Positions 497-57,317 of a stretch of 64,000 nt of DNA are shown here, piece after piece (positions within the stretch are counted from its first letter, which is position 1; each line of letters begins with the position of its first letter). The notes under the pieces were generated by a model that saw only the letters and a list, made by a program, of their open reading frames with translations, did not search any database and was not told the DNA's origin. Source of the DNA: a virus (Duplodnaviria > Heunggongvirae > Uroviricota > Caudoviricetes). Both the position numbers and the translations under genes were made by a program. The stretch is from positions 14,062 through 78,061 of the IMG/VR virus record IMGVR_UViG_3300046786_000272; one strand, 5' to 3'.

Positions 497-1090
497 ATGA
501 TTAAGATTTTAGTCCCTTTACCCAAAAAGATTACTATTGCTTGTAGCGGTGGTGTTGATAGTATGGCTGTCGTTGACTTTCTTAAACGAAAGCATGATGT
601 GACGATTGCATACTTCAATCATGGAACTAAACACGGTAGTGAGGCAATGATGTTTGTGGGAAAGTATTGTGCTGATAACAATATTCCCATGATGTACGGG
701 CAATGTCGTAGTGAAAAGGGTGAAAAAGAATCACAGGAAGAATATTGGCGCAGAGAACGATATGACTATCTGAGTGAATTGGGGCCGGTCATTACATGTC
801 ATCACTTAGACGATTGTATAGAAACATATATCTGGTCTAGTCTGCATGGTACTCCTAAAGTCATCCCACTCACACGCAATAACGTGCTTAGACCTTTTCT
901 AACTACACGTAAACAAGAATTTATTTCTTGGTGTGAGCGCCACAATGTATCTTGGATCGAAGACACTTCAAACAAAGACACAAAATATATGCGTAACTAT
1001 GTTCGCAACGAACTAATGCCTCACGCATTGCATGTTAATCCAGGTCTTCACAATGTAGTCAAACGTATTGTTGAAAACAAATCACAATGA
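497..1090 (+). CDS. PP-loop ATPase, TilS (tRNA(Ile)-lysidine synthetase) N-terminal-domain-like; lacks the C-terminal tRNA-binding domains
   Basis: SGGVDS PP-loop; CHHLDDCIETY and SWIEDTSNKDTKYMRNYVRNEL resemble the TilS HHLDDQ.ET / WxEDxSN / RN motifs; only 197 aa. Confidence 0.65.
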   Translation: MIKILVPLPKKITIACSGGVDSMAVVDFLKRKHDVTIAYFNHGTKHGSEAMMFVGKYCADNNIPMMYGQCRSEKGEKESQEEYWRRERYDYLSELGPVITCHHLDDCIETYIWSSLHGTPKVIPLTRNNVLRPFLTTRKQEFISWCERHNVSWIEDTSNKDTKYMRNYVRNELMPHALHVNPGLHNVVKRIVENKSQ

Positions 1091-2659: not shown

Positions 2660-2926
2660 ATGTCAGACTATAACCGCACTTTCAATAACGAAGCAAAAAT
2701 CAAACTAACACAACTTATCAATGAGGGCATGACTGTAATGCATGAGATTGATACATTGAATGGTGGCTTGAACGACACTATTAAAGCAGTTGCAGAAGAA
2801 TTGGAAATCAAAGCTTCAACATTGAAGAAGGCAGTACGCATTGCACACAAAGCATCATTGGGTCAAACAAATAAGGACCATGATGAACTCAACACCATCT
2901 TGGAGACAGTTGGTAAGACTCTATGA
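2660..2926 (+). CDS. hypothetical protein (88 aa)
   Basis: ORF with AAGGAG RBS; its stop overlaps the start of the next gene. Confidence 0.55.
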   Translation: MSDYNRTFNNEAKIKLTQLINEGMTVMHEIDTLNGGLNDTIKAVAEELEIKASTLKKAVRIAHKASLGQTNKDHDELNTILETVGKTL

Positions 2927-5637
2927 GTTATATTGATGCGATTCACAGTAGAGATGAGGATCGTATTTATGTAGTTGAGAGGGATACTGCCGGCAAACGG
3001 CAGTATAAAGAATTCCCGACTAACTACGTATTCTATTATGCTGATCCTAAGGGTAAGCACCGTAGCATTTACAACGATTCGGTATCTAGATTCAGTACAC
3101 GAAAGCGTACTGAGTTTGAGAAAGAACGTAGGATTCATCATGGCAAGAAATTGTTCGAGAGTGATGTTAACGTTGTATTCCGTTGTCTAAGTGAAAACTA
3201 TTTAGGTGTTGATGCCCCTAAACTACACACATGCTTTTTCGACATTGAAGTAGACTTTGATCCTGAGAAAGGCTTCAGTCCTACAAGTGATCCATTCAAT
3301 CCTGTAACAGCGATTAGTTGTTACTTAGATTGGCTAGATCAATGTGTTACTCTAGTCATTGCGCCTAAGCATATGTCTAAAGAAACGGCGAATGAGATTG
3401 TCAGTGAGTTTGAAAACACTATGCTATTCACAAATGAGAAGGACATGTTTGATGTGTTCTTTCAATTGATTGAAGATGCAGATGTGTTAACTGGTTGGAA
3501 CTCAGAAGGCTATGATATTCCATACATGGTCAATAGAGTTACACGTGTCATGTCGAAAGATGATACTCGCAAGTTCTGCTTGATGGGTCAATTGCCTAAG
3601 CCAAGAGAATACGAACGATTCGGCAAAGTTGAAATGACATATGACTTAGTAGGTCGTATTCACATGGACTATTTACAGTTGTACAAGAAGTATAACTATG
3701 AATCACGACACAGTTACAAACTAGATTCTATCGGTGAGATGGAAGTAGGTGAGAACAAAACACAATATGAAGGTACACTTGACCAGTTGTATAACAAAGA
3801 CTTTAAAAAGTTTATTGAATACAACAGACAAGATACAATGCTTTTAGTGAAGATTCACAACAAGCTTAAGTTTTTAGAGTTGGCAAATCAACTAGCACAC
3901 GAGAATACTGTACTGCTTCCAACAGTTATGGGTTCAGTGGCTATGATTGAAATGGCTATTATGAATGAATCGCACGAGCGAGGATTAGTTGTTCCAGATA
4001 AAAAACGAAAGGTTGAAGATGCAGATGAAATCCAGCAAGCGGCAGGTGCCTTTGTTGCTACGCCGAAACGAGGCATGCACGAATGGGTCGGAGCAGTTGA
4101 CATTAACTCGCTCTACCCCTCGGTTATTCGTGCCCTTAACATGGCCCCAGAAACAATCGTTGCTCAAGTCAGACAAACACTCACTGACCAGTACATGAAA
4201 GAAAAGGGACTCAAACTTGCAATGGAGAAAAAACGTTACAAGGATGGGGACGATGCGGTTGAAGGTGCTATCTTATGGGAAGGATTGTTTGGTGCATTAG
4301 AGTACACAGCAATCATGAGCCAAGAACGTGGTACTATCTTAACTGTAGACTTTGAAGATGGTCGCACTGTGGAAATGAGTGCGGCAGAAGTATGGAAGAT
4401 GATTTTTGATAGTCATAAGCCTTACATGTTATCAGCAAATGGTACAATCTTTACTTACGAGAAAGAGGGTGTGATTCCTGGTCTATTGACTCGTTGGTAC
4501 TCAGATCGTAAGACGATGCAGAAGAAACTAAAAGAAGCTACAACTGATAGTGATAAAGAGTATTGGGATAAGCGTCAATTAGTTCGTAAGATTTTACTTA
4601 ACTCAGCTTACGGTGCGTTGTTGAATGAACACTGTCGTTTCTATGATAAGCGTATCGGTCAAAGTGTTACATTGAGTGGTCGTCAGATTGTTAAACACAT
4701 GATGAGCCAGATCAATCAAACTGTTGCAGGTGAGTATTCACATGAAGGTGAAGCTATTGTATATGGAGATACTGACTCATGTTATTTCTCTGCGTACAAA
4801 ACATTGAAGCCTCAGATTGAATCTGGTGAGTTATCTTGGGACAAAGAGTTGTGCATTGGGTTGTATGATTCAATCGCAGACGAAGCTAATGATAGTTTCC
4901 CAGCATTCATGGAGAAAGCATTTCATGCTCCTCGTAAGAATGGTGAGATTATCAAAGCTGGTCGTGAATTGATCGGTGATCGTAGTATCTTTATCACGAA
5001 GAAGCGTTATGCTATCAACATCTTTGACAAAGAGGGCAAGCGCAAAGACAAAGATAAACCTGGTGATATCAAAGCTATGGGTCTTGACTTGAAACGTGCT
5101 GATACACCTAAGTATGTGCAAGAGTTCTTGTTAGAAGTTCTCAGTATGGTTATTCAACATGGTAAACAACGTGATGAAGTCATTGAGAAGGTAAAAGAAT
5201 TCAAACGTGTACTAGCCGCACAAGACAGTTGGACTAAAGGTTCTCCTAAGGGTGTGAACAAGCTTACATACTACGGTGATCTTGAAGCTAAGAGTGCATC
5301 AGGCAAAGCAAACATGCCTGGTCACGTTCGTGCGGCATTGAACTACAATTACTTGCGTAGAGTAAATGGAGATCAATATAGTCAGAAGATTGTTGATGGT
5401 ATGAAGGTAATCGTTTGTAAGTTAAAACCTAATCCCTTAGGATTTACAAGTGTTGCTTACCCAACTGATGAACTACGATTGCCTCAATGGTTCTGCGAGT
5501 TACCATTCGATGATAAAGAAATGGAAAAGACTCTAGTTGACGAAAAGATTGACAACTTACTGGGCGTGTTAGATTGGGATATTCGTTCTAACACAGATAC
5601 AAATTCAACGTTTGATGATTTATTCACATTCGGTTAA
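2923..5637 (+). CDS. Family B DNA polymerase (T4 gp43-like) with 3'-5' exonuclease domain
   Basis: Exo I motif FFDIEVD; KILLNSAYGAL (KxxxNSxYG); YGDTDS catalytic motif. 904 aa. Confidence 0.92.
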   Translation: MSYIDAIHSRDEDRIYVVERDTAGKRQYKEFPTNYVFYYADPKGKHRSIYNDSVSRFSTRKRTEFEKERRIHHGKKLFESDVNVVFRCLSENYLGVDAPKLHTCFFDIEVDFDPEKGFSPTSDPFNPVTAISCYLDWLDQCVTLVIAPKHMSKETANEIVSEFENTMLFTNEKDMFDVFFQLIEDADVLTGWNSEGYDIPYMVNRVTRVMSKDDTRKFCLMGQLPKPREYERFGKVEMTYDLVGRIHMDYLQLYKKYNYESRHSYKLDSIGEMEVGENKTQYEGTLDQLYNKDFKKFIEYNRQDTMLLVKIHNKLKFLELANQLAHENTVLLPTVMGSVAMIEMAIMNESHERGLVVPDKKRKVEDADEIQQAAGAFVATPKRGMHEWVGAVDINSLYPSVIRALNMAPETIVAQVRQTLTDQYMKEKGLKLAMEKKRYKDGDDAVEGAILWEGLFGALEYTAIMSQERGTILTVDFEDGRTVEMSAAEVWKMIFDSHKPYMLSANGTIFTYEKEGVIPGLLTRWYSDRKTMQKKLKEATTDSDKEYWDKRQLVRKILLNSAYGALLNEHCRFYDKRIGQSVTLSGRQIVKHMMSQINQTVAGEYSHEGEAIVYGDTDSCYFSAYKTLKPQIESGELSWDKELCIGLYDSIADEANDSFPAFMEKAFHAPRKNGEIIKAGRELIGDRSIFITKKRYAINIFDKEGKRKDKDKPGDIKAMGLDLKRADTPKYVQEFLLEVLSMVIQHGKQRDEVIEKVKEFKRVLAAQDSWTKGSPKGVNKLTYYGDLEAKSASGKANMPGHVRAALNYNYLRRVNGDQYSQKIVDGMKVIVCKLKPNPLGFTSVAYPTDELRLPQWFCELPFDDKEMEKTLVDEKIDNLLGVLDWDIRSNTDTNSTFDDLFTFG

Positions 5638-13902: not shown

Positions 13903-14204
13903 TGAGTAATTTTTACAATTCGTTCATGAGTAAATACCGTGTCAAACATGTGCAGGTAGTTCGTGACCGCAATTTTGAGACTATCAATTACAGTTACAAT
14001 CAATCTGCTAGTTATTACGCTGATCGTGAAGAACTTATTGAAATGGAACTCACACGTAGTGGATTTGAAGATTTGGTCAAGATGGATCGTGAGTATGACA
14101 ACATATGGCAAGACCAGCGTGATGAAGCATACTTGCGTAGAACGTACCCTGCAGTAGCAGAAGCATATAGTAAATATCGTATGATGTTAGAACTGTACAA
14201 ATAA
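13902..14204 (+). CDS. hypothetical protein (100 aa)
   Basis: ATGA overlap. Confidence 0.5.
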   Translation: MSNFYNSFMSKYRVKHVQVVRDRNFETINYSYNQSASYYADREELIEMELTRSGFEDLVKMDREYDNIWQDQRDEAYLRRTYPAVAEAYSKYRMMLELYK

Positions 14205-39144: not shown

Positions 39145-39173
39145 TTGACAATAAATGGTTTTGGTGCTATAAT
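39145..39173 (+). promoter_or_regulatory. repeated early-type promoter P2: TTGACAATAAATGGTTTTGGTGCTATAAT plus conserved leader AGAATCTTAGACAGTTAGATAAAGGA
   Basis: TTGACA 39145-50, TATAAT 39168-73; ATG at 39207. Confidence 0.6.
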
Positions 39174-39206: not shown

Positions 39207-39953
39207 ATGCCTGGATTTGTTGACGTTAGCGGTATGACATACGAACAAGTGCGCCGCATGGGTCATGCTGATGACTACGATGCTCCCACTCGCAACCCAT
39301 ACGCATATCGCAAACCCGCATTTGGTGCTTCTAAGGTTACTATGTCATTCAATGCCGATGACGTGTGGGCAGTAGCATGTGCGGCATTCAGAATCAATGG
39401 TTCGTATGTCAAAGCTATTGCACCCGGTACTACACAAAAGACCAATCGTCAAATTGCTGAGGAACTGTTGAAAGACCAATCATTGGTAACTAGCGATGAC
39501 CGTGCGAAGGGTCAACTGGCTCGTCAATACTACAAAGGTCTCACATTCAAAGTAATTGAAGGCAAAACTCTCAACGACTTTAATAAGAATGCAATGGAGA
39601 TTGCAAGTCTTGAGACTATCACTACAACCTATCAACTTGCAATTATTGTTAGTTTGCCAGCATCTTATGAAAAGTCTAGTAAGCGTGATGACGTTGATCG
39701 CCGTATCAATTTTGCACGTGGCGGATATGTAGGTGTTGTAGGTGAGAAAGTCTCGCTTAACATTGAAGTACTCAAACAATTGTGGAGCGAGAAATATAAC
39801 ACATGGTACTTGACCGGTATCACTACCGAGGATCAAGTTGTGTTCTTTGCTTGCAGAGAGAATTTTGATATTGGTACACATCTCACTATCACAGGCTCTG
39901 TTAAGGGACAACGTGAAACTTCAACTCAACTCAACCGTGTAAAGGTAATCTAA
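39207..39953 (+). CDS. hypothetical protein (248 aa)
   Basis: Own promoter P2; ORF. Confidence 0.55.
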   Translation: MPGFVDVSGMTYEQVRRMGHADDYDAPTRNPYAYRKPAFGASKVTMSFNADDVWAVACAAFRINGSYVKAIAPGTTQKTNRQIAEELLKDQSLVTSDDRAKGQLARQYYKGLTFKVIEGKTLNDFNKNAMEIASLETITTTYQLAIIVSLPASYEKSSKRDDVDRRINFARGGYVGVVGEKVSLNIEVLKQLWSEKYNTWYLTGITTEDQVVFFACRENFDIGTHLTITGSVKGQRETSTQLNRVKVI

Positions 39954-39954
39954 A

Positions 39955-40080
39955 ATGAATTTTATTTATGGCGTAGTATTTGGTATTGTTATCGCTACAG
40001 TTGGCTTTAGCGGCATCGCTAAAATGGCTGACAAAGGTGTTGACAAAGTTAAAGAAGTTACCCTTGAACAAGTCAAGTGA
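39955..40080 (+). CDS. possible small membrane protein (41 aa), not in ORF track
   Basis: TAAAATG junction; hydrophobic FIYGVVFGIVIATVGFSGIA. Confidence 0.25.
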   Translation: MNFIYGVVFGIVIATVGFSGIAKMADKGVDKVKEVTLEQVK

Positions 40081-40109
40081 AATTTAAACGTAAGCAACTG
40101 GAGGATAAA

Positions 40110-40520
40110 ATGGGTCTAGATATGTACGCATACGTTGGTCGTCCCGGTCAACGTGACGAATTCTATGAGAAGGCTGAATGGAACGAAGATACTAAAGAGT
40201 TTGATAGTCCGATTTCAAAGCCTGTTGAAATTGCTTACTGGCGCAAGCATCCTTCACTTCATGGTTGGATGGAACAACTTTGGCAGAAGAAAAATCCTGA
40301 GGATATGTCTACTTTCAACGGCATTGAACTTGAACTAACTTGGGAAGACGTTGACGAACTTGAACAAACAGTAGTTCACGGACAACTACCGTTCACTGAA
40401 GGTTTCTTCTTTGGTAAGCCTGCAGATAATGTTTACTACCATGAAGACCTCAAGTTTTGCCTTGAAGCTAAAGCAGAATTGTTCTTGGGCAACAAAGTCT
40501 TTTACAACAGTAGCTGGTAA
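40110..40520 (+). CDS. hypothetical protein (136 aa)
   Basis: GGAGGATAAAATG RBS; in frame with listed ORF 40077..40520. Confidence 0.55.
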   Translation: MGLDMYAYVGRPGQRDEFYEKAEWNEDTKEFDSPISKPVEIAYWRKHPSLHGWMEQLWQKKNPEDMSTFNGIELELTWEDVDELEQTVVHGQLPFTEGFFFGKPADNVYYHEDLKFCLEAKAELFLGNKVFYNSSW

Positions 40521-40523
40521 TGT

Positions 40524-40853
40524 ATGAGACTAATGTTAGGCACAAAAGAACGTCCAAGTTTACTCGTCAATGTTGGGCAAGAGTATAGTCCCACTCACTT
40601 TGACTTTTGGGTAGTCAATGGTGCATGGGATGGAACATTCTATAATGGATATGTGACTGTGCATCATCCTTATAATCCACATTCTAGTCTTGACAAGATT
40701 GAGATACTGTGCGATAATCAAGATAGGTTACGATGTAATGATTGGAGTGGTGGTTACCAAGAAGTGTTCGATAACTTCCATGATGAAAGTTATGTTGCAC
40801 CTAAGCCCAAGCCAGTAGTATTTGATGACATGGATGATGATATCCCTTTTTAA
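40524..40853 (+). CDS. hypothetical protein ending in the SSB C-terminal-tip-like motif DDMDDDIPF
   Basis: Last codons gat gac atg gat gat gat atc cct ttt taa (40824..40853); body (109 aa) is not an obvious OB fold. Confidence 0.5.
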   Translation: MRLMLGTKERPSLLVNVGQEYSPTHFDFWVVNGAWDGTFYNGYVTVHHPYNPHSSLDKIEILCDNQDRLRCNDWSGGYQEVFDNFHDESYVAPKPKPVVFDDMDDDIPF

Positions 40854-41524: not shown

Positions 41525-42004
41525 ATGACTATTCTATATCGCATTAAACCCGCAGATAAAAAATCTGTTGAGGCATTCTATGACGTATACAAAAAAATGC
41601 CTGATGGCTCTACTAAAGGATGGAATGTAACTGAACTATATCGTTGGGGACAAGGGTTCGTTGAAGGTGAAGACGAATTACCATATAGTGATGACAGATA
41701 TCATAGTGTCGATCCTACTATTGGTTGGGGGTGTGAACTTGATGACCTCTGTGCTGTAGATTTTGAATTTGATGATAGTTTCACGGACGAAGAAAAAGCT
41801 GAAATTGAACAAGCATGGGAAGACGGTGGTGCAGGTTGGCTCTATGATGGTGACCATGATTGGCTAGTAGAAGACGATAGTGTTACTATTTTAGGACCCT
41901 TTGTGGTTGACAAAATTGACGAAAACGTGTATAATGAGTCTATTGAAGTAATTGAATTGAAACCCAGACCCCCACGTGACAAAACTAGTGCGTGGCCCTT
42001 CTAA
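41525..42004 (+). CDS. highly acidic Trp-rich protein (159 aa)
   Basis: D/E-rich (..ELDDLCAVDFEFDDSFTDEEKAEIEQAWEDGGAGWLYDGDHDWLVEDD..). Confidence 0.5.
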   Translation: MTILYRIKPADKKSVEAFYDVYKKMPDGSTKGWNVTELYRWGQGFVEGEDELPYSDDRYHSVDPTIGWGCELDDLCAVDFEFDDSFTDEEKAEIEQAWEDGGAGWLYDGDHDWLVEDDSVTILGPFVVDKIDENVYNESIEVIELKPRPPRDKTSAWPF

Positions 42005-43899: not shown

Positions 43900-44100
43900 A
43901 TGAACGAAAAAATTAAACAACTTGCTGAACAGGCTGGTATGCACGATTTTGTCCTTGAAGCAATGGGCATTGGTGAAGAATTTGAAAAGTTCGCCGAGTT
44001 GATTGTCAAGGAAATGTTAGTGACTTGTGATGGACATCCTGCTTGGACTGGTCGTATGATCGGTGAACAGATTAAACAACATTTCGGAGTCAAAGAATGA
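43900..44100 (+). CDS. hypothetical protein; paralogue of 43359..43634
   Basis: See paralogue. Confidence 0.5.
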   Translation: MNEKIKQLAEQAGMHDFVLEAMGIGEEFEKFAELIVKEMLVTCDGHPAWTGRMIGEQIKQHFGVKE

Positions 44101-44339: not shown

Positions 44340-46184
44340 ATGAGCAAAGTAATCGGTATCGACCTCGGTACAACCAATTCATGTGTAGCCGTTATTGAGA
44401 ACGGAATCCCCAAAGTTATTGAAAACAGTGAAGGTGCTAGAACTACACCCTCTATCGTTGCCTATGCAAACGATGAAATCTTAGTCGGTGCAAGTGCTAA
44501 ACGACAAGCTGTTACTAATCCAAAGAATACTATCTATGCGGCTAAACGTCTAATTGGACGTAAGTTCAAAGAAGACGCTGTACAAAAAGATATTGACTTG
44601 ATGCCCTACAAAATCGTTGAAGCAGGTAACGGTGATGCATGGGTTAAGGTAGGTGATAAGGATCTTGCACCTCCCGGCATCAGTGCAGAAGTCTTGCGTA
44701 AGATGAAAACAACCGCAGAAGATTATCTCGGCCATGAAGTTACTCAAGCTGTTATCACAGTTCCTGCATACTTTAACGATAGTCAACGTCAAGCAACTAA
44801 AGACGCAGGTAAGATTGCGGGTCTTGAAGTATTGCGTATTATTAATGAACCAACAGCGGCAGCATTGGCATATGGTGTTGACAAACAAGACAAGACAGAC
44901 CGCAAAGTTGCAGTCTATGACTTAGGTGGTGGTACATTTGACGTTTCTATCATTGAGATTGCTAACGTTGATGGTGAAAAACAAATTGAAGTACTATCTA
45001 CAAATGGTGATACATTCTTAGGTGGTGAAGACTTTGACCAACGCATCATGGATTTCTTGGTCGATGAATTCAAGAAAGAGTCAGGAGTTGACTTGAAGCA
45101 AGATATGCTTGCATTGCAACGACTGAAAGAAGCTAGTGAAAAAGCTAAGATTGAATTGTCTAGTTCTCAACAAACTAGCGTCAACTTGCCGTACATCACT
45201 GCTGATGCAACTGGTCCAAAGCACATGAACGTTAGTATCAATCGTGCAAAGCTAGAACAGTTGGTTGAAGAGTTGATTCAACGAAGTGTCGGACCTTGCA
45301 AAACAGCAATGAAAGATGCTGGTGTTAGTGCTAGTGATATTGACGAAGTTATCTTAGTCGGTGGTATGACACGTATGCCTAAGGTACAGGAGACAGTTGA
45401 AAAATTGTTTGGTAAGCAACCTCGCAAAGACGTTAACCCTGACGAAGCGGTTGCCGCAGGCGCCGCAATTCAAGGTGCAGTGTTGAGCGGTGATCGTAAA
45501 GACGTATTGTTGCTAGACGTTACTCCACTATCATTGGGTATCGAAACAATGGGCGGTGTAATGACTAAGTTGATTCAGAAGAATACAACTATCCCCACAA
45601 AGCATTCACAAGTGTTTAGTACCGCTGATGACAATCAACCTGCAGTTACTATTAAGGCTTATCAAGGTGAGCGTGAGTTTGTTCAACATAATAAGTTGTT
45701 GGGTGAGTTTAACTTGGAAGGTATTGCACCAGCACGCCGAGGCACACCTCAGATTGAAGTTACACTTGATATTGACGCAAACGGTATCATGCATGTATCA
45801 GCTAAAGACAAGAATACAGGCAAAGAAAACAAGATTACTATCAAGAGTAATAGTGGATTGACTGATGCAGAAATTGAGCAAATGATTAAAGATGCTGAAT
45901 TGAATGCAGAAGAAGATAAGAAGAAGCGTGAAATCGTAGAGACTAAAAACTCCGCTGAATCACAGATTCATTCTATCCGCAAAGACCTTGAAGAAACTAC
46001 TGTTTCCCAAGATGTTAAAGATAAGATTGAACAAGCTATTACAGAAGTTCAAACTGCTATCAGCACTGAGGATAAGGAACAGATTACCCAAAAGTTGAGC
46101 GAGTTGTTTGTTGCGGCACAACCATTAATGGAAGCTAAAAACAAACCTTCTGACGAAACGGTAGTTGATGCCGAAGTAGTATAA
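44340..46184 (+). CDS. dnaK: Molecular chaperone DnaK (Hsp70)
   Basis: [23 protein letters not shown], 614 aa, bacterial-DnaK-like throughout. Confidence 0.95.
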
Positions 46185-50827: not shown

Positions 50828-52024
50828 ATGTCAAATGAAAATAAACTAAACCATTGTTCCTTTTGTGGTAACCACAAAGATATAGTAAAGAAACTTATCG
50901 TAAGTGATAACGTTGCTATTTGCAGTGACTGCATTGAACAATGCACTCAACTTATAACTGATGACAGTTCTGTAGTAGAGTCAGAAGGACCCAAACAAAA
51001 CTACGATCCATCTGATATCAAGAACTTCTTAGACTTGCACATCATTGGTCAAGACCATGCTAAAATGGTTCTTAGCGTAGCAATCGCTAATCATTATAAA
51101 CGAATCACACATCCCCCTAAAGATTTAGAAATTCAAAAGGGTAATGTATTGTTGATTGGGCCTACTGGTAGCGGTAAGACATTGCTTGCTAAAACAGTAG
51201 CAAAGTACCTTAACGTTCCTTTCGTAGTAGCTGATGCAACTAGCTTGACAGAAGCAGGTTACGTAGGTGATGACGTTGAATCTATGATTAGTATGCTTCT
51301 CACTAACGCCGGCGGTGATGCTAAACTAGCAGAAAAAGGTATTGTTTTCATTGATGAAGTTGATAAGATTGCACGTAAAGGTGAATCCGCAAGCTTGACA
51401 CGTGATGTATCAGGTGAAGGTGTTCAACAAGCATTGTTGAAATTAGTTGAGGGCACGGTATGTCGTGTGCCAGCAGGTGGTGGCAGAAAGCATCCATCAG
51501 GTGAAATGATTGAAATCAACACAAAAAATATCTTATTCATTGCAGGTGGTGCATTTGTTGGCTTGAAAGATATTATCTCTAGTAGACATTCAGGATCTAG
51601 TATTGGATTTGGTGCAGAGATTAAAGACAAGAAAAAAGAAGGTGACTTGGGTCTAGTATCACCTGATGACCTCACTAAGTTTGGTATGATTCCTGAATTG
51701 ATCGGTCGTTTTACTACTGCGGTTAGTGTAGCAAACTTGACCAAAGAAGAACTTATCAAGGTACTTACTTCTGTTAAAAATAATTATATTGACCAATATA
51801 AGTATTTGTTTAGTATCGACCAGATTGATTTGCAATTCAGCGATGATGCATTAGAACAAATGGTTGACAACTGTATGAAGTTGAATACTGGTGCTCGTGG
51901 ACTTCATACTGAGATTGAACGTGCTTTGATGCCGCACATGTACAATACTAAGAAGTATCGTGAAAGCGAAATCAAAGTGGTAAATATTACACAAGCGGGT
52001 GTAGTAGAACCAAAAGCACTGTAA
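50828..52024 (+). CDS. clpX: ATP-dependent Clp protease ATP-binding subunit ClpX
   Basis: N-terminal C4 zinc finger CSFCGNHKD..CSDCIEQC; Walker A GPTGSGKTLLAKTVA; ClpX-like throughout. Confidence 0.9.
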   Translation: MSNENKLNHCSFCGNHKDIVKKLIVSDNVAICSDCIEQCTQLITDDSSVVESEGPKQNYDPSDIKNFLDLHIIGQDHAKMVLSVAIANHYKRITHPPKDLEIQKGNVLLIGPTGSGKTLLAKTVAKYLNVPFVVADATSLTEAGYVGDDVESMISMLLTNAGGDAKLAEKGIVFIDEVDKIARKGESASLTRDVSGEGVQQALLKLVEGTVCRVPAGGGRKHPSGEMIEINTKNILFIAGGAFVGLKDIISSRHSGSSIGFGAEIKDKKKEGDLGLVSPDDLTKFGMIPELIGRFTTAVSVANLTKEELIKVLTSVKNNYIDQYKYLFSIDQIDLQFSDDALEQMVDNCMKLNTGARGLHTEIERALMPHMYNTKKYRESEIKVVNITQAGVVEPKAL

Positions 52025-52125: not shown

Positions 52126-52569
52126 ATGACAAATCAACTAACCCTTCGTTCCTTAGACATTCCGTCTATTCACAAATTTGCAGTAGGTTTTGACAATCTA
52201 TTTGATGAAATGTTGCGTATCAATGCACAACAAGGCTCTACTAACTATCCACCATTCAACATTGTTCAAATCAATGAAGATGAGTATCAGATTAGTTTAG
52301 CAGTCGCTGGATTCGGGCCTGACAATATTGATGTTACTAAAGAAGGTAACTATCTTGTTATTGAAGGTACACCTGTATTGCCACTAGACGAAATCAATTA
52401 CCTACACAAAGGAATCAGCACACGTAGTTTCCGTCGTGAGTTCAAACTTGCTGACCATGTGGATATTGAGAATTGTAATCTTGAATTGGGTATCCTCTCA
52501 ATTAATTTAAAGAGAACAATTCCTGAAGAACAGAAGCCCAAGAAAATTGCAATTAACTACAATAAATAA
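52126..52569 (+). CDS. Small heat-shock protein (Hsp20/IbpA-like, alpha-crystallin domain)
   Basis: 147 aa; YQISLAVAGFGPDNIDV...GILSINLKR pattern typical of Hsp20. Confidence 0.65.
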   Translation: MTNQLTLRSLDIPSIHKFAVGFDNLFDEMLRINAQQGSTNYPPFNIVQINEDEYQISLAVAGFGPDNIDVTKEGNYLVIEGTPVLPLDEINYLHKGISTRSFRREFKLADHVDIENCNLELGILSINLKRTIPEEQKPKKIAINYNK

Positions 52570-52594
52570 TATAATGTAGTTTGAAGGAAACACT

Positions 52595-52900
52595 ATGTCA
52601 AAAACAGAAACTAAACTTAAAATCAAGCCAATCACAACACTTGCTGAACCACCATTGTTTAAGATTATCTACTTCAACGATGATGTGACTAGCGTGGAAT
52701 TCGTGGTAACTTCGTTGATTGATTACTTTAATTATACGAATGATACTGCGGCTGATATCACTAACAGCATCCATAATACTGGTAGTGCAGTTGTTGCTGT
52801 TTTGCCATACGAAATAGCAGAGCAAAAAGGAATTGAGGTTACACTTGACGCACGTAGTCAGGGATTCCCGCTACAAGTTAAGGTAGAAGCAGAAGCTTAA
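52595..52900 (+). CDS. clpS: ATP-dependent Clp protease adaptor ClpS
   Basis: PPLFKIIYFNDDVTSVEFVVTSLIDYF aligns with ClpS PxxYKVxLxNDDYTPMEFV. Confidence 0.8.
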   Translation: MSKTETKLKIKPITTLAEPPLFKIIYFNDDVTSVEFVVTSLIDYFNYTNDTAADITNSIHNTGSAVVAVLPYEIAEQKGIEVTLDARSQGFPLQVKVEAEA

Positions 52901-53640
52901 ATCTTTATTTCTATTCTCTTAGCCCAATAGGGCTTTCTCTTGTAATAAGAGTTGTTCAAGTAGTTGATGCCATTGATAACGGTGTCAACTACTTTTCCAT
53001 ATGTTCCATATACCCAATGTGATACTTTCTTTTCAGTATCACTAGTTAATATCAAGTCCAATGAGAGTTGTGAGTCTATTGCGCTAGGCTCTTCACCAAA
53101 ATATAAGTCTACACCAGGCACTGAGTGTGAGACTATCAATATCTTTTTAACGTCCAAGTGTCTTTGGAGTCGTTCTATAGTAGACTTCAAATAATACAAA
53201 TCCTCGTATCTTTGATTGTCAATAGCTATTTCTGTTTTCATGTCCGAGGTAGCTATTTCCCCGTACCATCCATTTGCGCCAACGATTGCGATTCCATCAA
53301 CTATAACTACATGATGATGTAGCATCACTACCTTCTGTAGATTTTTACTGATTCTAAAAATGTCATCAGTGCGTTGATTTATATCAGTGGCGCCCTCGTA
53401 TTCTAGGGTTCCTATAGTGTAAAATACACCTTGATAAAACCTAGATAAATGCGCTAAGGTCTGGTGTATAGTCCTTAGGTCGTTACTGATATTACCAGCA
53501 ACTATGCAATACAAGCTTGTAGCCTTCCCCTCCCAGTTAAACGAGTCTTCCGGTGATAGGTTTAGGTCACTTATTATGTCAAAACCAATAGTCATAAAGG
53601 CATGATAACAGGTTTCCCTGTTATCATGATTACTTAGCAA
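52897..53640 (-). CDS. hypothetical protein (247 aa); degenerate metallophosphoesterase-like motifs
   Basis: IISDLNL (DxH-like, H replaced by N) and VAGNIS; weak. Confidence 0.4.
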   Translation of the reverse strand: MLSNHDNRETCYHAFMTIGFDIISDLNLSPEDSFNWEGKATSLYCIVAGNISNDLRTIHQTLAHLSRFYQGVFYTIGTLEYEGATDINQRTDDIFRISKNLQKVVMLHHHVVIVDGIAIVGANGWYGEIATSDMKTEIAIDNQRYEDLYYLKSTIERLQRHLDVKKILIVSHSVPGVDLYFGEEPSAIDSQLSLDLILTSDTEKKVSHWVYGTYGKVVDTVINGINYLNNSYYKRKPYWAKRIEIKI

Positions 53641-53902
53641 CAGTCATTTTTGGCTTTTTTGCTGTCCTAGCTTTTGGCTTTGCGGGCGCTTTCGCTTTGG
53701 CAGGTGCCTTAGCTTTTGGCTCAGCTTTCTTTTTAGTAGCAGTTATTGCAGGGGTAGCTGGTGTAGCTTCCACAACAGGTGCTTCTACCTTTACAGCTGG
53801 TGCTGCCTCTACTACAGGGGCTACTTCTACCTTATAAGGTACTTCGGCTACTGTCTCTTGTTTTGTGGATAATCCCAACAAACGCTTAAAAAAGTCTAAC
53901 AT
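53630..53902 (-). CDS. Ala/Pro/Lys-rich low-complexity histone-H1/AlgP-like protein (90 aa)
   Basis: AAPAVKVEAPVVEATPATPA...KAKAPAKAKAPAKPKARTAKKPKMTVAK. Confidence 0.5.
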   Translation of the reverse strand: MLDFFKRLLGLSTKQETVAEVPYKVEVAPVVEAAPAVKVEAPVVEATPATPAITATKKKAEPKAKAPAKAKAPAKPKARTAKKPKMTVAK

Positions 53903-53983
53903 TTTTATCTCCTAAACATATATTTACTCTAGGGCTAAAACATAGCATTTTTTCTGCAATGCGCCCACTTAAATACATTTATT

Positions 53984-54475
53984 ATGTTCCTAAGAAATAA
54001 CCTCAAAGACTTGATGCAGGAAGAGCTACCTAGTATAGCCTACCAAAAACGTCTGTATTATAGGACAGATTATGATGAAGTAGTCAAGCTTTATCGTATG
54101 CTAAACAAGCAAGTATTCAACAATAAATTGATTATGCCCGAGATTGAGGTTATGGGACGTTGCAGAAAGTACTGGGGCATGTGCTACGGCTCAACAACAA
54201 TGCCCACAAAAACTAAGAGTTTTTGCAAGATACGTATGATGGATAAGTGGTATTGCAAACAATGGCTTATCACAGTATTAGCACATGAAATGTGCCATCA
54301 ATATCAGTGGGATGTTGAGGGATTGAAAAGACTATATCAAGGGAAAGAACCGATAATGAGTCATGGACCTAGTTTCTTTATCTTTAGGGATAAATTAAAG
54401 AAACTAGGTATTCCTTTAAAGAGCGCACATAGCAAGCGCAAATGGTTTAAACATCAAAATCTATTTAAGTGCTAA
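53984..54475 (+). CDS. SprT-like zinc metalloprotease domain protein
   Basis: VLAHEMCHQYQWD (HExxH) in SprT-like context. Confidence 0.55.
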   Translation: MFLRNNLKDLMQEELPSIAYQKRLYYRTDYDEVVKLYRMLNKQVFNNKLIMPEIEVMGRCRKYWGMCYGSTTMPTKTKSFCKIRMMDKWYCKQWLITVLAHEMCHQYQWDVEGLKRLYQGKEPIMSHGPSFFIFRDKLKKLGIPLKSAHSKRKWFKHQNLFKC

Positions 54476-54493
54476 AACGCATAAATACACATT

Positions 54494-55993
54494 ATGCGTG
54501 AATATCTAGACCTAATCCAAATCCTTTCAGAAGCCCCAGTTGGCTTAAGTGCCAACGAAATCAAAAAATATGACTGGCGCTTTAAAAAATTCATTGAATA
54601 CATTACTCAAAAAAAGCCCTTTACAAAAATTGATGGTAGTGAAGTTATCGCTGACCCTAGAGAAGCAAGACGTTTCCAACAACTGTTTAATAATGGACAG
54701 TTTGGTGGTGCATTAAAGATTCGTTTAAGTGATGGTGACGAGATAGCATTAAGTCAATTGGCTAAGACAGGTGACTTTGGTGGCGCCGCAGTAGCCGCAG
54801 GACAGGATGCTAGTCAAGCAGGTAAAGAAGGATTAGTAGTTAAACCTAGTCAAATTGGTATCTGTGATAAGAATATCCCGGCAGAAGATTTGTATGAAGT
54901 TATTGAATCTAACGCCGCATTAGCTAGTACAGACTATGGACAAGTTGTTCAACTATTAGCTACTATGATTGTTTCAGGTGATGCAGTGATGTTGCCGCCC
55001 GAGTATCAAGGAAAAGAAAAAGAAAAAGTTCGCAAAGCTATCGTTGACTACGCAGGCGAATACTTAGGTGTACTAGCACTAATTTACAATCGTAGTCGTT
55101 TCCCTAGAAAAGCAGAATTTCAAAAGTGGATGGGGGCAGATACTAATCAGTTAACAGTTAACTTCCCCTTGAAGGCTAATACTAACTTAGCAGATAGTTA
55201 CGCTACTGTTACTAACAGTGCAACTAATCACACACTAAACATCTCTAGTAAAGGCACAGGTGGTGGAGCCGCTCCTGCTATCTCAGGATTAAAAGTTCCT
55301 GACTATATCAGAAATGATCCTAACTATGAAAATGCTATTCAGTTCATTGATATTTGTCAGAAATTAGGAACTGTTCCTCAAGCGTTCGCGGCTATGGATT
55401 TGATTTTTCAAGTTAATCCAAACGCAATAAACAAGAAATGGCACAAGTTCTTACCTTTCTCACAGAAGAACCCTAAATTAGCTACACTAGCTAAACAAAG
55501 TTTAGACTTGAAAAAGCAACGTGTTGACCAACCACTTCCAGCAAAGTATCAGTCTTTGTTCAACGATATCAATTCTCCTAGCGCCAGCGACGGTGGTAAA
55601 TTAATTTATTGTATTAAACGTGAAGTAGCAGATGCTATGAACAGTCGTGATGCTATCCCTGAGTTTAAAGATGCCATCATTCAGATTTTGGAAATGAACT
55701 TTATTCAACAGTATTGTGATTATAAGAGTGGTCAACTAATGTTCGCTACGCAATGGCCTGCAAAGCTTGATGGTAAGATTAGTGTTGAAAACAAGTCTAG
55801 TGCTATTGACCCAACAGCAGGTGGTTTCAGCTTTAAACTTGGCCGCACTGACGATTCAGTAAGCGCAGAGCCCGGAGAAGAGCCAGTAGACGGATTAGAA
55901 AACGAACCCGATCTAGCGACTGCATCTAAAGAGATTGCAGAACCTACGAAGACTAAAGAAAAAGAAACTGGTCAACGTAAAAAGAGAAAATAA
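54494..55993 (+). CDS. hypothetical protein (499 aa) with basic C-terminal tail
   Basis: Long ORF; C-terminal KTKEKETGQRKKRK. Confidence 0.55.
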   Translation: MREYLDLIQILSEAPVGLSANEIKKYDWRFKKFIEYITQKKPFTKIDGSEVIADPREARRFQQLFNNGQFGGALKIRLSDGDEIALSQLAKTGDFGGAAVAAGQDASQAGKEGLVVKPSQIGICDKNIPAEDLYEVIESNAALASTDYGQVVQLLATMIVSGDAVMLPPEYQGKEKEKVRKAIVDYAGEYLGVLALIYNRSRFPRKAEFQKWMGADTNQLTVNFPLKANTNLADSYATVTNSATNHTLNISSKGTGGGAAPAISGLKVPDYIRNDPNYENAIQFIDICQKLGTVPQAFAAMDLIFQVNPNAINKKWHKFLPFSQKNPKLATLAKQSLDLKKQRVDQPLPAKYQSLFNDINSPSASDGGKLIYCIKREVADAMNSRDAIPEFKDAIIQILEMNFIQQYCDYKSGQLMFATQWPAKLDGKISVENKSSAIDPTAGGFSFKLGRTDDSVSAEPGEEPVDGLENEPDLATASKEIAEPTKTKEKETGQRKKRK

Positions 55994-55995
55994 GT

Positions 55996-56035
55996 ATCCA
56001 TAATAGTTGATTTTGTATTGTTATGGATGTACAAT
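55996..56035 (+). promoter_or_regulatory. promoter TTGATT-17-TACAAT for clpP, with 8-bp inverted repeat ATCCATAA..TTATGGAT flanking the -35
   Basis: TTGATT 56007-12, TACAAT 56030-35; IR arms at 55996-56003 and 56021-56028. Confidence 0.45.
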
Positions 56036-56058
56036 ACAGTTTTAACTAAAGGATCCTT

Positions 56059-56646
56059 ATGAGTCTAGTACCAATCGTTGTAGAACAAACCGCTAAAGGC
56101 GAACGCAGTTATGACATTTACAGTCGTCTACTGCGTGACCGAGTCATTTTGCTTGAGGGTGAAGTTCACGACCAAATGGCAAACTTGATTGTTGCCCAAT
56201 TGTTATTCCTTGAATCAGAGGATGCAGACAAAGATATTTCAATGTACATTAATAGCCCAGGTGGTAGTGTTACTGCAGGTATGGCAATCTATGATACAAT
56301 GCAATTCATCAAACCAAACGTTCATACTATCGTAATGGGACAAGCATGTTCAATGGGTTCACTACTTGCACAAGCAGGTGCTCCAGGTAAACGTTTTATG
56401 TTGCCTAACGCACGACACATGATTCATCAACCAAGTGGTGGCGCACGTGGTATGCAATCTGACATTGAAATCAGTTATCGAGAAATCACATTCTTGAAAA
56501 AACGACTGACTGAAATCTATGTTAAGCACAACAGTGCAGGAAAAACATACGAAGATTTTGAACGTGATATGGATCGTGACAAATTCATGAGTGCTGAAGA
56601 GGCATTGGCATACGGCTTGATTGACAAGATCGTTGAAAAACGTTAA
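56059..56646 (+). CDS. clpP: ATP-dependent Clp protease proteolytic subunit ClpP
   Basis: [24 protein letters not shown]...[10 protein letters not shown]...MIHQPSGG: near-canonical bacterial ClpP with Ser/His/Asp triad context. Confidence 0.9.
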
Positions 56647-57317
56647 TGATTAAATTCACCCCTGTACCCATCAGTGGACATGAAGCAATCCTAGGGAAAG
56701 ACTTCAACAACAAGTTTGCTACATTCATGGCTGACTTTTATGCACCATTCAAAAAGCATAACCTTGATATTCAAGTTGCAAAAGAGACATGGGAGTATGG
56801 CGTAACTGCCGGCGTGCCTAATGCCTCTTGGGTGGGTGCAGGGAAAAATGTAGTAGATGTTAAATCTCCTACCGCTGACTTAGACGTTAAAGGTCTTAGT
56901 TGTAATTGGATCGCAAGCAATCAGACTACAGAGGCAAGTTTCTTGCAGAATAACAAAAAAGAAAATGACAATTTTGCTAAGTTATTTGAATCAAAAGACT
57001 TTACAGCCTTGAAGGAAATGTTTGTCGATCCTTTGCAGGAAAAAATCAAAAACACTAATAACCTACACATGTTTTGTATTATTCGTGACAAGGAATATAA
57101 AGATGTGTATTATGCATTGATGAAGGTAGAACCCACTTCATTGACGGACACTGAGTTTGTCAATGGGATGTGCCTTGACGCAGGTCGTAGTGTTTCCGTT
57201 CCTATGATAGACCCTGCATACGGTAAAACGTATATCTACATCCCAAAGCGCAGACTAGAACTAAGACTAAACCCTGCAGGAATGAGTACTTTTTTAGTAA
57301 ATTCGCACAGATACTAA
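56646..57317 (+). CDS. hypothetical protein (223 aa)
   Basis: TAATG overlap with clpP. Confidence 0.5.
   Translation: MIKFTPVPISGHEAILGKDFNNKFATFMADFYAPFKKHNLDIQVAKETWEYGVTAGVPNASWVGAGKNVVDVKSPTADLDVKGLSCNWIASNQTTEASFLQNNKKENDNFAKLFESKDFTALKEMFVDPLQEKIKNTNNLHMFCIIRDKEYKDVYYALMKVEPTSLTDTEFVNGMCLDAGRSVSVPMIDPAYGKTYIYIPKRRLELRLNPAGMSTFLVNSHRY

Follow-up and report, generated by a model that had tools for sequence, protein, structure and literature searches.

A phage-only protein that carries the C-terminal tip of bacterial SSB on a body without an OB fold, and its possible role as a competitor for SSB-interacting host proteins

The acidic tip at the C-terminus of bacterial SSB serves as a hub for at least 17 partner proteins. 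What does such a tip do at the end of a small phage protein whose body is not that of an SSB? This question is raised by an ORF in a 64,000-nt stretch of DNA (referred to here as the window), which covers positions 14,062–78,061 of the Caudoviricetes IMG/VR record IMGVR_UViG_3300046786_000272.

Anatomy of the protein and its likeness to SSB

A sequence-only reading of the window had pointed to a small protein ending in DDDIPF, and this was borne out by a complete ORF of 109 aa (Table 1). Its translation closes with APKPKPVVFDDMDDDIPF in front of the stop codon (in another excerpt, YVAPKPKPVVFDDMDDDIPF), the last ten residues being FDDMDDDIPF. The first ATG was taken as the real start, since other family members likewise begin with a conserved MRLMLG. 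Among the 350 window ORFs of at least 40 aa, this is the only one with an acidic, hydrophobic-terminated tail of such a kind, and the chance expectation for ORFs ending in DDDIPF, calculated with the window's own amino-acid frequencies, is about 1.2e-5 for the window. Based on this expectation, on the uniqueness of the tail in the window, and on the constancy of its residues despite varying codons, a chance origin was ruled out.

With regard to the closest relatives, 119 of 120 ended in DDDI[PA]F. Among the representatives of 50%-identity clusters, 85 of 144 ended in [ILV][PAC][FY], with D-[WMF]-D-D-D-I-P-F as consensus, and the last six positions of these 85 diverged proteins read D(65)-D(81)-D(68)-I(75)-P(69)-F(83), preceded by W, M, or F at position -7 and by mostly acidic residues at -8/-9. 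Across 64 distinct DNA versions of the tail, hardly any change was seen in the six residues, while their codons vary (GAT/GAC, ATT/ATC/ATA, CCA/CCT/CCG/CCC, and TTT/TTC), which points to purifying selection on the peptide. The PF00436 SSB of a betaproteobacterial MAG revealed the C-terminus GGSFDDMDDDIPF, and its last 10 residues are identical to those of the 109-aa protein. Comparison with a true SSB via hhalign resulted in an alignment of only the last 9 residues, which were 100% identical over 9 columns. By sequence, the likeness to E. coli SSB, which ends in MDFDDDIPF, spans the whole 9-residue acidic tip, and the protein harbors the conserved acidic form D-D-D-I/L-P-F with a free carboxylate.

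Family alignments of residues 1–86 revealed the domain motif MRLMLG...LLV...F.F.V.NG.W.G...IL.D.QDRL.G.Y..VF.NF., with F.F.V.NG.W.G and QDRL(R)G.Y..VF as conserved body motifs. The linker starts with a semi-conserved Y.AP, while both sequence and length of its remainder differ between family members; it comprises about 10–25 aa, and the whole C-terminal extension 20–34 aa, in tip-bearing members. In the 109-aa protein, the linker is Pro/Lys-rich and not Gly/Gln/Pro-rich. The body displayed a median net charge of -5 in members with the tip and -4 in those without it (family range -13 to +2; pI about 4.8–5.3), and this acidic character argues against DNA binding. Being acidic with or without the tail, and having no OB fold, the body itself probably does not coat ssDNA. 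No OB-fold ssDNA-binding domain was detected by sequence profile in Pfam, NCBIfam, or PHROG, and the family profile resulted in 0 matches to PDB sequences at E≤10; the body fold has no solved relative. The predicted structure also did not display the OB-fold topology, i.e., a five-stranded barrel with a helix between strands 3 and 4, so that the earlier impression of a body unlike an OB fold held up in both structure prediction and profile searches. The view that the protein is simply a short SSB was ruled out by the absence of an SSB profile match and of an OB fold and by the restriction of the hhalign match to the tail.

Table 1. Coordinates of the ORF, its parts, and other features mentioned in the text (window positions, unless a locus is named)
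Feature	Position	Strand	Details
Complete ORF	40524..40853	+	109 aa plus stop, by translation; member of an unannotated phage-only family
Residues 1-86, acidic all-beta domain	40524..40781	+	strands 2-6, 11-22, 25-30, 35-40, 43-46, 60-63; helix 78-83
Residues 87-100, linker DESYVAPKPKPVVF	40782..40823	+	no secondary structure in the model; family alignments
Residues 101-109, DDMDDDIPF	40824..40850	+	SSB-Ct acidic tip with free C-terminal Phe
Tail peptide of the 109-aa protein			VVFDDMDDDIPF
Perfect sigma70 consensus promoter	39145..39173	+	TTGACA-17-TATAAT, TG before the -10 hexamer; 34 nt upstream of 39207
Three tightly packed upstream genes	39207..40520	+	248 aa (39207-39953), 41 aa (39955-40080), 147 aa (40077-40520)
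Seven perfect promoters, 29 nt each	31540, 38810, 39145, 41907, 57321, 57852, 58249	+	
Acidic protein, two genes downstream	41525-42004	+	159 aa, ...TSAWPF
Members of the multi-copy family of about 65-90 aa	43359-43634 and 43900-44100	+	MNE.IKQL...AG...F..L.V.E
Family B polymerase	2923-5637	+	C-terminus ...STFDDLFTFG
PP-loop/QueC-like protein	497-1090		
Hsp70/DnaK	44340-46184		
ClpX-like protein with zinc finger	50828-52024		
ClpP, ClpS, Hsp20, Fe/Mn superoxide dismutase	probably 52126-57317		
Tad3, Gad2, Acb1 anti-defence genes	L001:1-2213	+	99.8-kb relative
MoxR/CbbQ-type AAA+ ATPase	L029:900-2039	+	AAA_5, CbbQ_C; ends ...APDDEEIPF
PF00436 SSB, betaproteobacterial MAG	L085 7578-8081		
DDDIPF-ending examples (loci L086-L205)	L133:942-2771	+	
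	L109:4839-6524	-	
	L202:9669-10490	-	
	L195:5733-6575	+	
	L191:351-578	-	

Distribution of the family and of the tip

Relatives of the 109-aa protein amounted to 647 clusters at 90% identity among metagenomic proteins, none of them annotated, and a profile search against 1.84 billion cluster representatives resulted in 144 matches (50%-identity clusters). Neither Pfam, PHROG, nor NCBIfam revealed a match for the protein, and no close relative was identified in 50,697 deposited phage genomes. In 185,579 bacterial and archaeal species (one genome each), the family was absent, the sole match being the tail of a real SSB. The family is phage-only and unannotated, and was found at 76 IMG/VR loci on contigs of up to 364 kb. 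Megablast and tblastn analysis using the protein, its short form, the family consensus, and a diverged member identified no cultured phage with a tail-bearing member; the matches in cultured phages were weak or tail-less. Some homologues, e.g., P0121 and P0136, displayed N-terminal extensions that are mutually unrelated or derive from an abundant family of about 80 aa encoded in the neighborhood, which in P0121 and P0136 is joined to the N-terminus of the tip-bearing family, either by fusion or by gene calling. These extensions are probably fusions or mis-called starts, and no functional clue was gained from them.

About 30 representative clusters (79–93 aa) end right after the helix, without linker or tip. 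The same beta-domain was identified in the tail-less gp131 of Acinetobacter phage TaPaz (hhalign probability 97.4%) and in the tail-less ORF020c of Aeromonas phage 25 (94.9%), the latter being located directly after dexA and near dda in a classical T4-type early region. Like the window protein, both are small early-region proteins of T4-like/large myoviruses and are annotated as hypothetical; unlike it, they stop behind the helix. In T4, no homologue was detectable in the dexA/dda region, and dexA.1, dexA.2, motB.2, and dda.1 were rejected as candidates. As about 30 lineages possess the domain but no tail, the tip can be regarded as a modular graft, and since tail-less members exist, the domain should have a function of its own to which the tip adds a second one. 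A conserved body that is also found tail-less argues against a mere inert carrier. A crude neighbor-joining and parsimony analysis, based on a short alignment in which some "tail-less" entries are fragments, resulted in 14 tip gain/loss events compared to 25 for shuffled states; this suggests that the tip was gained or lost repeatedly, though we do not rely on the number.

The tip had initially been taken for a singular oddity, a view that had to be given up, as it was found on many other non-SSB phage proteins. A scan of IMG/VR for DNA encoding DDDIPF-TAA resulted in at least 121 ORFs, with only rough proportions among the matches listed. Among these listed matches were 33 canonical OB SSBs and 2 members of the window family, as well as non-canonical SSB families (phrog_18154, DUF669/phrog_6015, phrog_44, phrog_9002, gp2.5-like phrog_112, and others). 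The non-SSB proteins among the matches listed comprised SF2 helicases (ResIII/DEAD/Helicase_C), a DnaB-like helicase, a primase-helicase, and an AEP primase, and furthermore a "polymerase processivity factor", Pam3_Gp34-like proteins, phrog_862, and a 75-aa phrog_1811 family (examples in Table 1). Going by these sequences, the grafting of the host SSB tip onto unrelated proteins looks common in phages. In the full-text literature searched (most subscription journals lie outside its coverage), we found neither a natural non-SSB protein that uses the SSB tip nor an SSB-tail decoy.

The phage and the surroundings of the gene

The family B polymerase encoded in the window is nearest to those of Phosso, Atu_ph07, and RaK2, which belong to the jumbo T4-superfamily (44–50% identity), and its C-terminus resembles the clamp-binding C-terminal tails of T4-type polymerases. 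Replication genes of the phage comprise this polymerase with its T4-like clamp tail, a ligase, and a 5'-3' exonuclease, and relatives carry rIIB, PstS, and UvdE nearby. Based on the polymerase affinity and on these nearby genes, we assigned the gene to large, lytic, T4-like environmental phages. A clamp-binding tail of the T4 type was ruled out for the 109-aa protein, since DDMDDDIPF is unlike the end of the polymerase. Apart from that, a complete set of proteostasis genes (DnaK, ClpX, ClpP, ClpS, and Hsp20) is found in the phage, together with one for superoxide dismutase. A 7-deazaguanine (queuosine-precursor) gene set, consisting of a PP-loop/QueC-like protein, GTP cyclohydrolase I, a QueD-like PTPS, and a QueE-like radical SAM protein, suggests modified phage DNA, and the window also harbors genes for the UV endonuclease UvdE, dCMP deaminase, and sugar-nucleotide enzymes.

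The promoter at 39145–39173, with its extended -10, heads a tight gene run (39207–40853) with the ORF as its last gene, and the three genes in between are probably co-transcribed with it. The last of these, coding for the 147-aa phrog_7971 protein with the conserved C-terminus ...KVFYNSSW, ends 3 nt before the ATG of the ORF. In 15–18 related loci, it likewise adjoins the family gene and ends 3–4 nt before it, which suggests translational coupling. Neither the 147-aa nor the 248-aa protein revealed a match in Pfam, NCBIfam, or PDB. Altogether, the window contains seven perfect sigma70 promoters, compared to 0.06 expected, all of them on the + strand, and five of the seven share the spacer motif AATAAATGG.TTTGG, in its extended form TTGACAATAAATGG.TTTGG..TATAAT. 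In 71 distinct related loci (1.03 Mb), near-consensus promoters were detected 169 times on the strand of the gene versus 3 times on the opposite one. The promoters of the window and of the related loci look like a phage early-promoter family, and by analogy to T4, the units headed by them are predicted to be early and to be read by the host RNA polymerase.

The genes next to the family gene are small, mostly unannotated, and not conserved between loci, and guilt by association revealed no consistent partner gene. A multi-copy family of about 80 aa was found nearby in 41 of 69 distinct loci (141 copies), with two members in the window. In 16 of the 69 distinct loci, a neighbor cluster of about 450 aa, probably a DNA ligase, is located within about 1 kb downstream, and other recurring neighbors are an RNA-ligase-like protein, a phosphoesterase, and NAD-salvage genes. 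In a 99.8-kb relative (L001), the anti-defence genes Tad3, Gad2, and Acb1 belong to the same co-oriented run, 8–10 kb upstream of the family gene; among the loci examined, this was the only one with such genes. Two other proteins drew attention by their C-termini. The 159-aa acidic protein encoded two genes downstream was rejected as a second tip carrier: three of its relatives keep WPF, two of them with 2–4 residues following, so that it is not a free C-terminal tip. At another related locus, a MoxR/CbbQ-type AAA+ ATPase also ends in a tip-like fashion, as the sole further case in the 1.24 Mb of related loci, and has no homologue in the other loci.

Possible function of the tip and competing explanations

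In its general layout, the window protein resembles bacterial SSB (PF00436), as both consist of a folded domain, a linker (in the window protein a presumably flexible one), and an acidic tip with a free Phe carboxylate, including the hydrophobic residue at -7 and the acidic ones at -8/-9. Unlike in SSB, the OB fold and a PF00436 match are absent, the linker comprises 10–25 aa in the family instead of about 56, and the body is acidic and seems not to bind DNA; the two proteins align in the tail only. Binding of RecO, PriA, PriC, and chi was measured by ITC for the 9-residue SSB tip alone, independent of the linker (PMC7145534), and in a PriB-SSBc chimera the SSB C-terminal domain transferred function to another body (PMC8509808). 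Based on this tip-alone binding and on the functional chimera, it is likely that the tip of the 109-aa protein docks into SSB-Ct pockets. Such chimeras (PMC8509808) and free SSB-Ct competitor peptides (PMC7145534) engage partners with the tail on a foreign body or on its own, but they are artificial, whereas the graft in the window family is natural, occurs across hundreds of phage lineages, and sits on a body without a DNA-binding signature.

For the protein as a whole, we tentatively prefer, at somewhat less than even confidence, a role as a tip-anchored competitor or inhibitor of host SSB-interacting proteins. It would then be a two-module early accessory protein, whose presumably flexible linker presents a free SSB tip (D-[WMF]-DDDIPF-COOH) to the SSB-Ct pockets of host ExoI, RecJ, RecQ, RecO, PriA, chi, Ung, and RNase HI or, alternatively, of defence nucleases/helicases using the same pocket, while the acidic beta-domain would add a scaffold or another contact. 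Overall, the protein would act by competition, the targets being uncoupled from SSB-coated ssDNA or inhibited outright, and phage replication and recombination intermediates would be protected early in infection. We favor this because the body is acidic and apparently not DNA-binding, because the gene seems to be early and accessory, because its neighbors vary as those of takeover/anti-defence genes do, and because the phage carries its own T4-type replication enzymes, which leave a less obvious need to recruit parts of the host replisome. Also counted in its favor were the absence of the family from bacterial and archaeal genomes, the L001 stretch with Tad3, Gad2, and Acb1, the identity of the tip to a real SSB over 10 residues, and the retention of the tip while the linker varies. 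On the other hand, these anti-defence genes lie at a distance and at a single locus. A single tip binds partners weakly compared to tetrameric SSB on DNA, so that an effective decoy would need high copy number, oligomerization, or a second contact. The phage proteins gp5.9 and Ocr (PMC9836394) are comparable as small, acidic, early proteins for which a block of host enzymes by ligand mimicry is proposed or shown; they mimic DNA, whereas the window protein, as a putative inhibitor, would mimic a peptide motif of a host protein.

The conserved body, with its polar motif QDRLRG.Y, stands alone in tail-less lineages including cultured phages, and this implies a binding activity of its own, which counts against a competitor in that it fits an adaptor equally. 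As such, the beta-domain might bind a phage component (a tip-less ssDNA-binding protein, the replisome, or DNA), and the tail would supply the SSB-Ct in trans and recruit a host enzyme, e.g., PriA, RNase HI, topoisomerase III, RecQ, or Ung. T4-type SSBs do not possess an SSB-Ct tip. An adaptor, and not a competitor, is also favored by the finding of this tip on phage DnaB-like helicases, primases, SF2 helicases, and a processivity factor, for which docking suggests itself as the role and recruitment is the natural reading. The probable DNA ligase downstream as well as the recurring RNA-ligase-like and phosphoesterase genes are consistent with an adaptor. Nevertheless, we rate this main rival of the competitor as the less probable of the two: the immediate neighbors are not conserved, no replisome gene is consistently linked, and T4-like phages encode a self-sufficient replisome. 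Moreover, a search with probe sequences revealed neither a gp32-type nor a bacterial SSB in the window or in the 10 kb around each relative, so that there is no partner to nominate.

The tail could also serve contacts within the phage, like the tail of T7 gp2.5 or the clamp-binding tails of T4 proteins, by binding the phage polymerase, clamp, helicase, or recombinase; its likeness to SSB would then be convergent or inherited, and host proteins would not be its targets. Acidic Phe-ending tails mediate phage-internal contacts in T7 gp2.5 (10.64898/2026.02.22.705581), and phage annealing proteins were reported to read SSB C-terminal tails. What T7 gp2.5 and other phage SSBs have in common with the window protein is the device of an acidic, Phe-terminated C-terminus for protein docking, which in those SSBs is disordered and depends on the Phe. 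However, gp2.5 binds ssDNA by an OB fold and contacts phage proteins with its tail, whereas the window protein has no such fold and reproduces the SSB sequence of the host exactly in its tail. The tail of the window polymerase is different and of the T4 type, a similar tip is carried by no other ORF of the window and by only one protein in the related loci, and a 10-residue identity to SSB that includes the hydrophobic -7 and the acidic -8/-9 positions exceeds a convergence on "acidic plus Phe", all of which makes a phage-internal role improbable. We rate it as very improbable that the protein is an unconventional, non-OB ssDNA-binding protein, i.e., a functional SSB of novel fold. Many structurally different phage SSB families (gp2.5-like, DUF669, phrog_18154, phrog_9002, and others) end in DDDIPF, the beta-domain is rich in conserved aromatic residues, and ssDNA binders of novel fold are reported for phages, e.g., Drc (PMC7145618). 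But the body is acidic throughout the family and no OB fold, a PHROG SSB match is absent, unlike in the other small tip-bearing families, the gene is located among accessory and not replication genes, and tail-less members would have to be SSBs without a tip.

Returning to the competitor, a more far-reaching version of this preferred reading is doubtful, though worth stating: the family might be a natural SSB-tail decoy, possibly oligomeric, which saturates the SSB-Ct pockets of host nucleases, helicases, or SSB-linked defence sensors and disconnects the host SSB interactome from phage DNA, and might represent one case of a widespread, undescribed tip-grafting strategy.

Bacterial genome maintenance has its central docking site in the SSB tip, which has also been proposed as a target for antibiotics. 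A natural protein with this tip on a body that does not bind DNA would offer a probe for the SSB hub, or an inhibitor of it, that is ready to use, and would point to a route of phage takeover or defence evasion that works by peptide mimicry and not by DNA mimicry. Among environmental jumbo and T4-like phages, the family is abundant, yet wholly unannotated, and the presence of the tip on helicases, primases, and several small proteins suggests that phages may follow a general rule in linking up with the DNA metabolism of their hosts.
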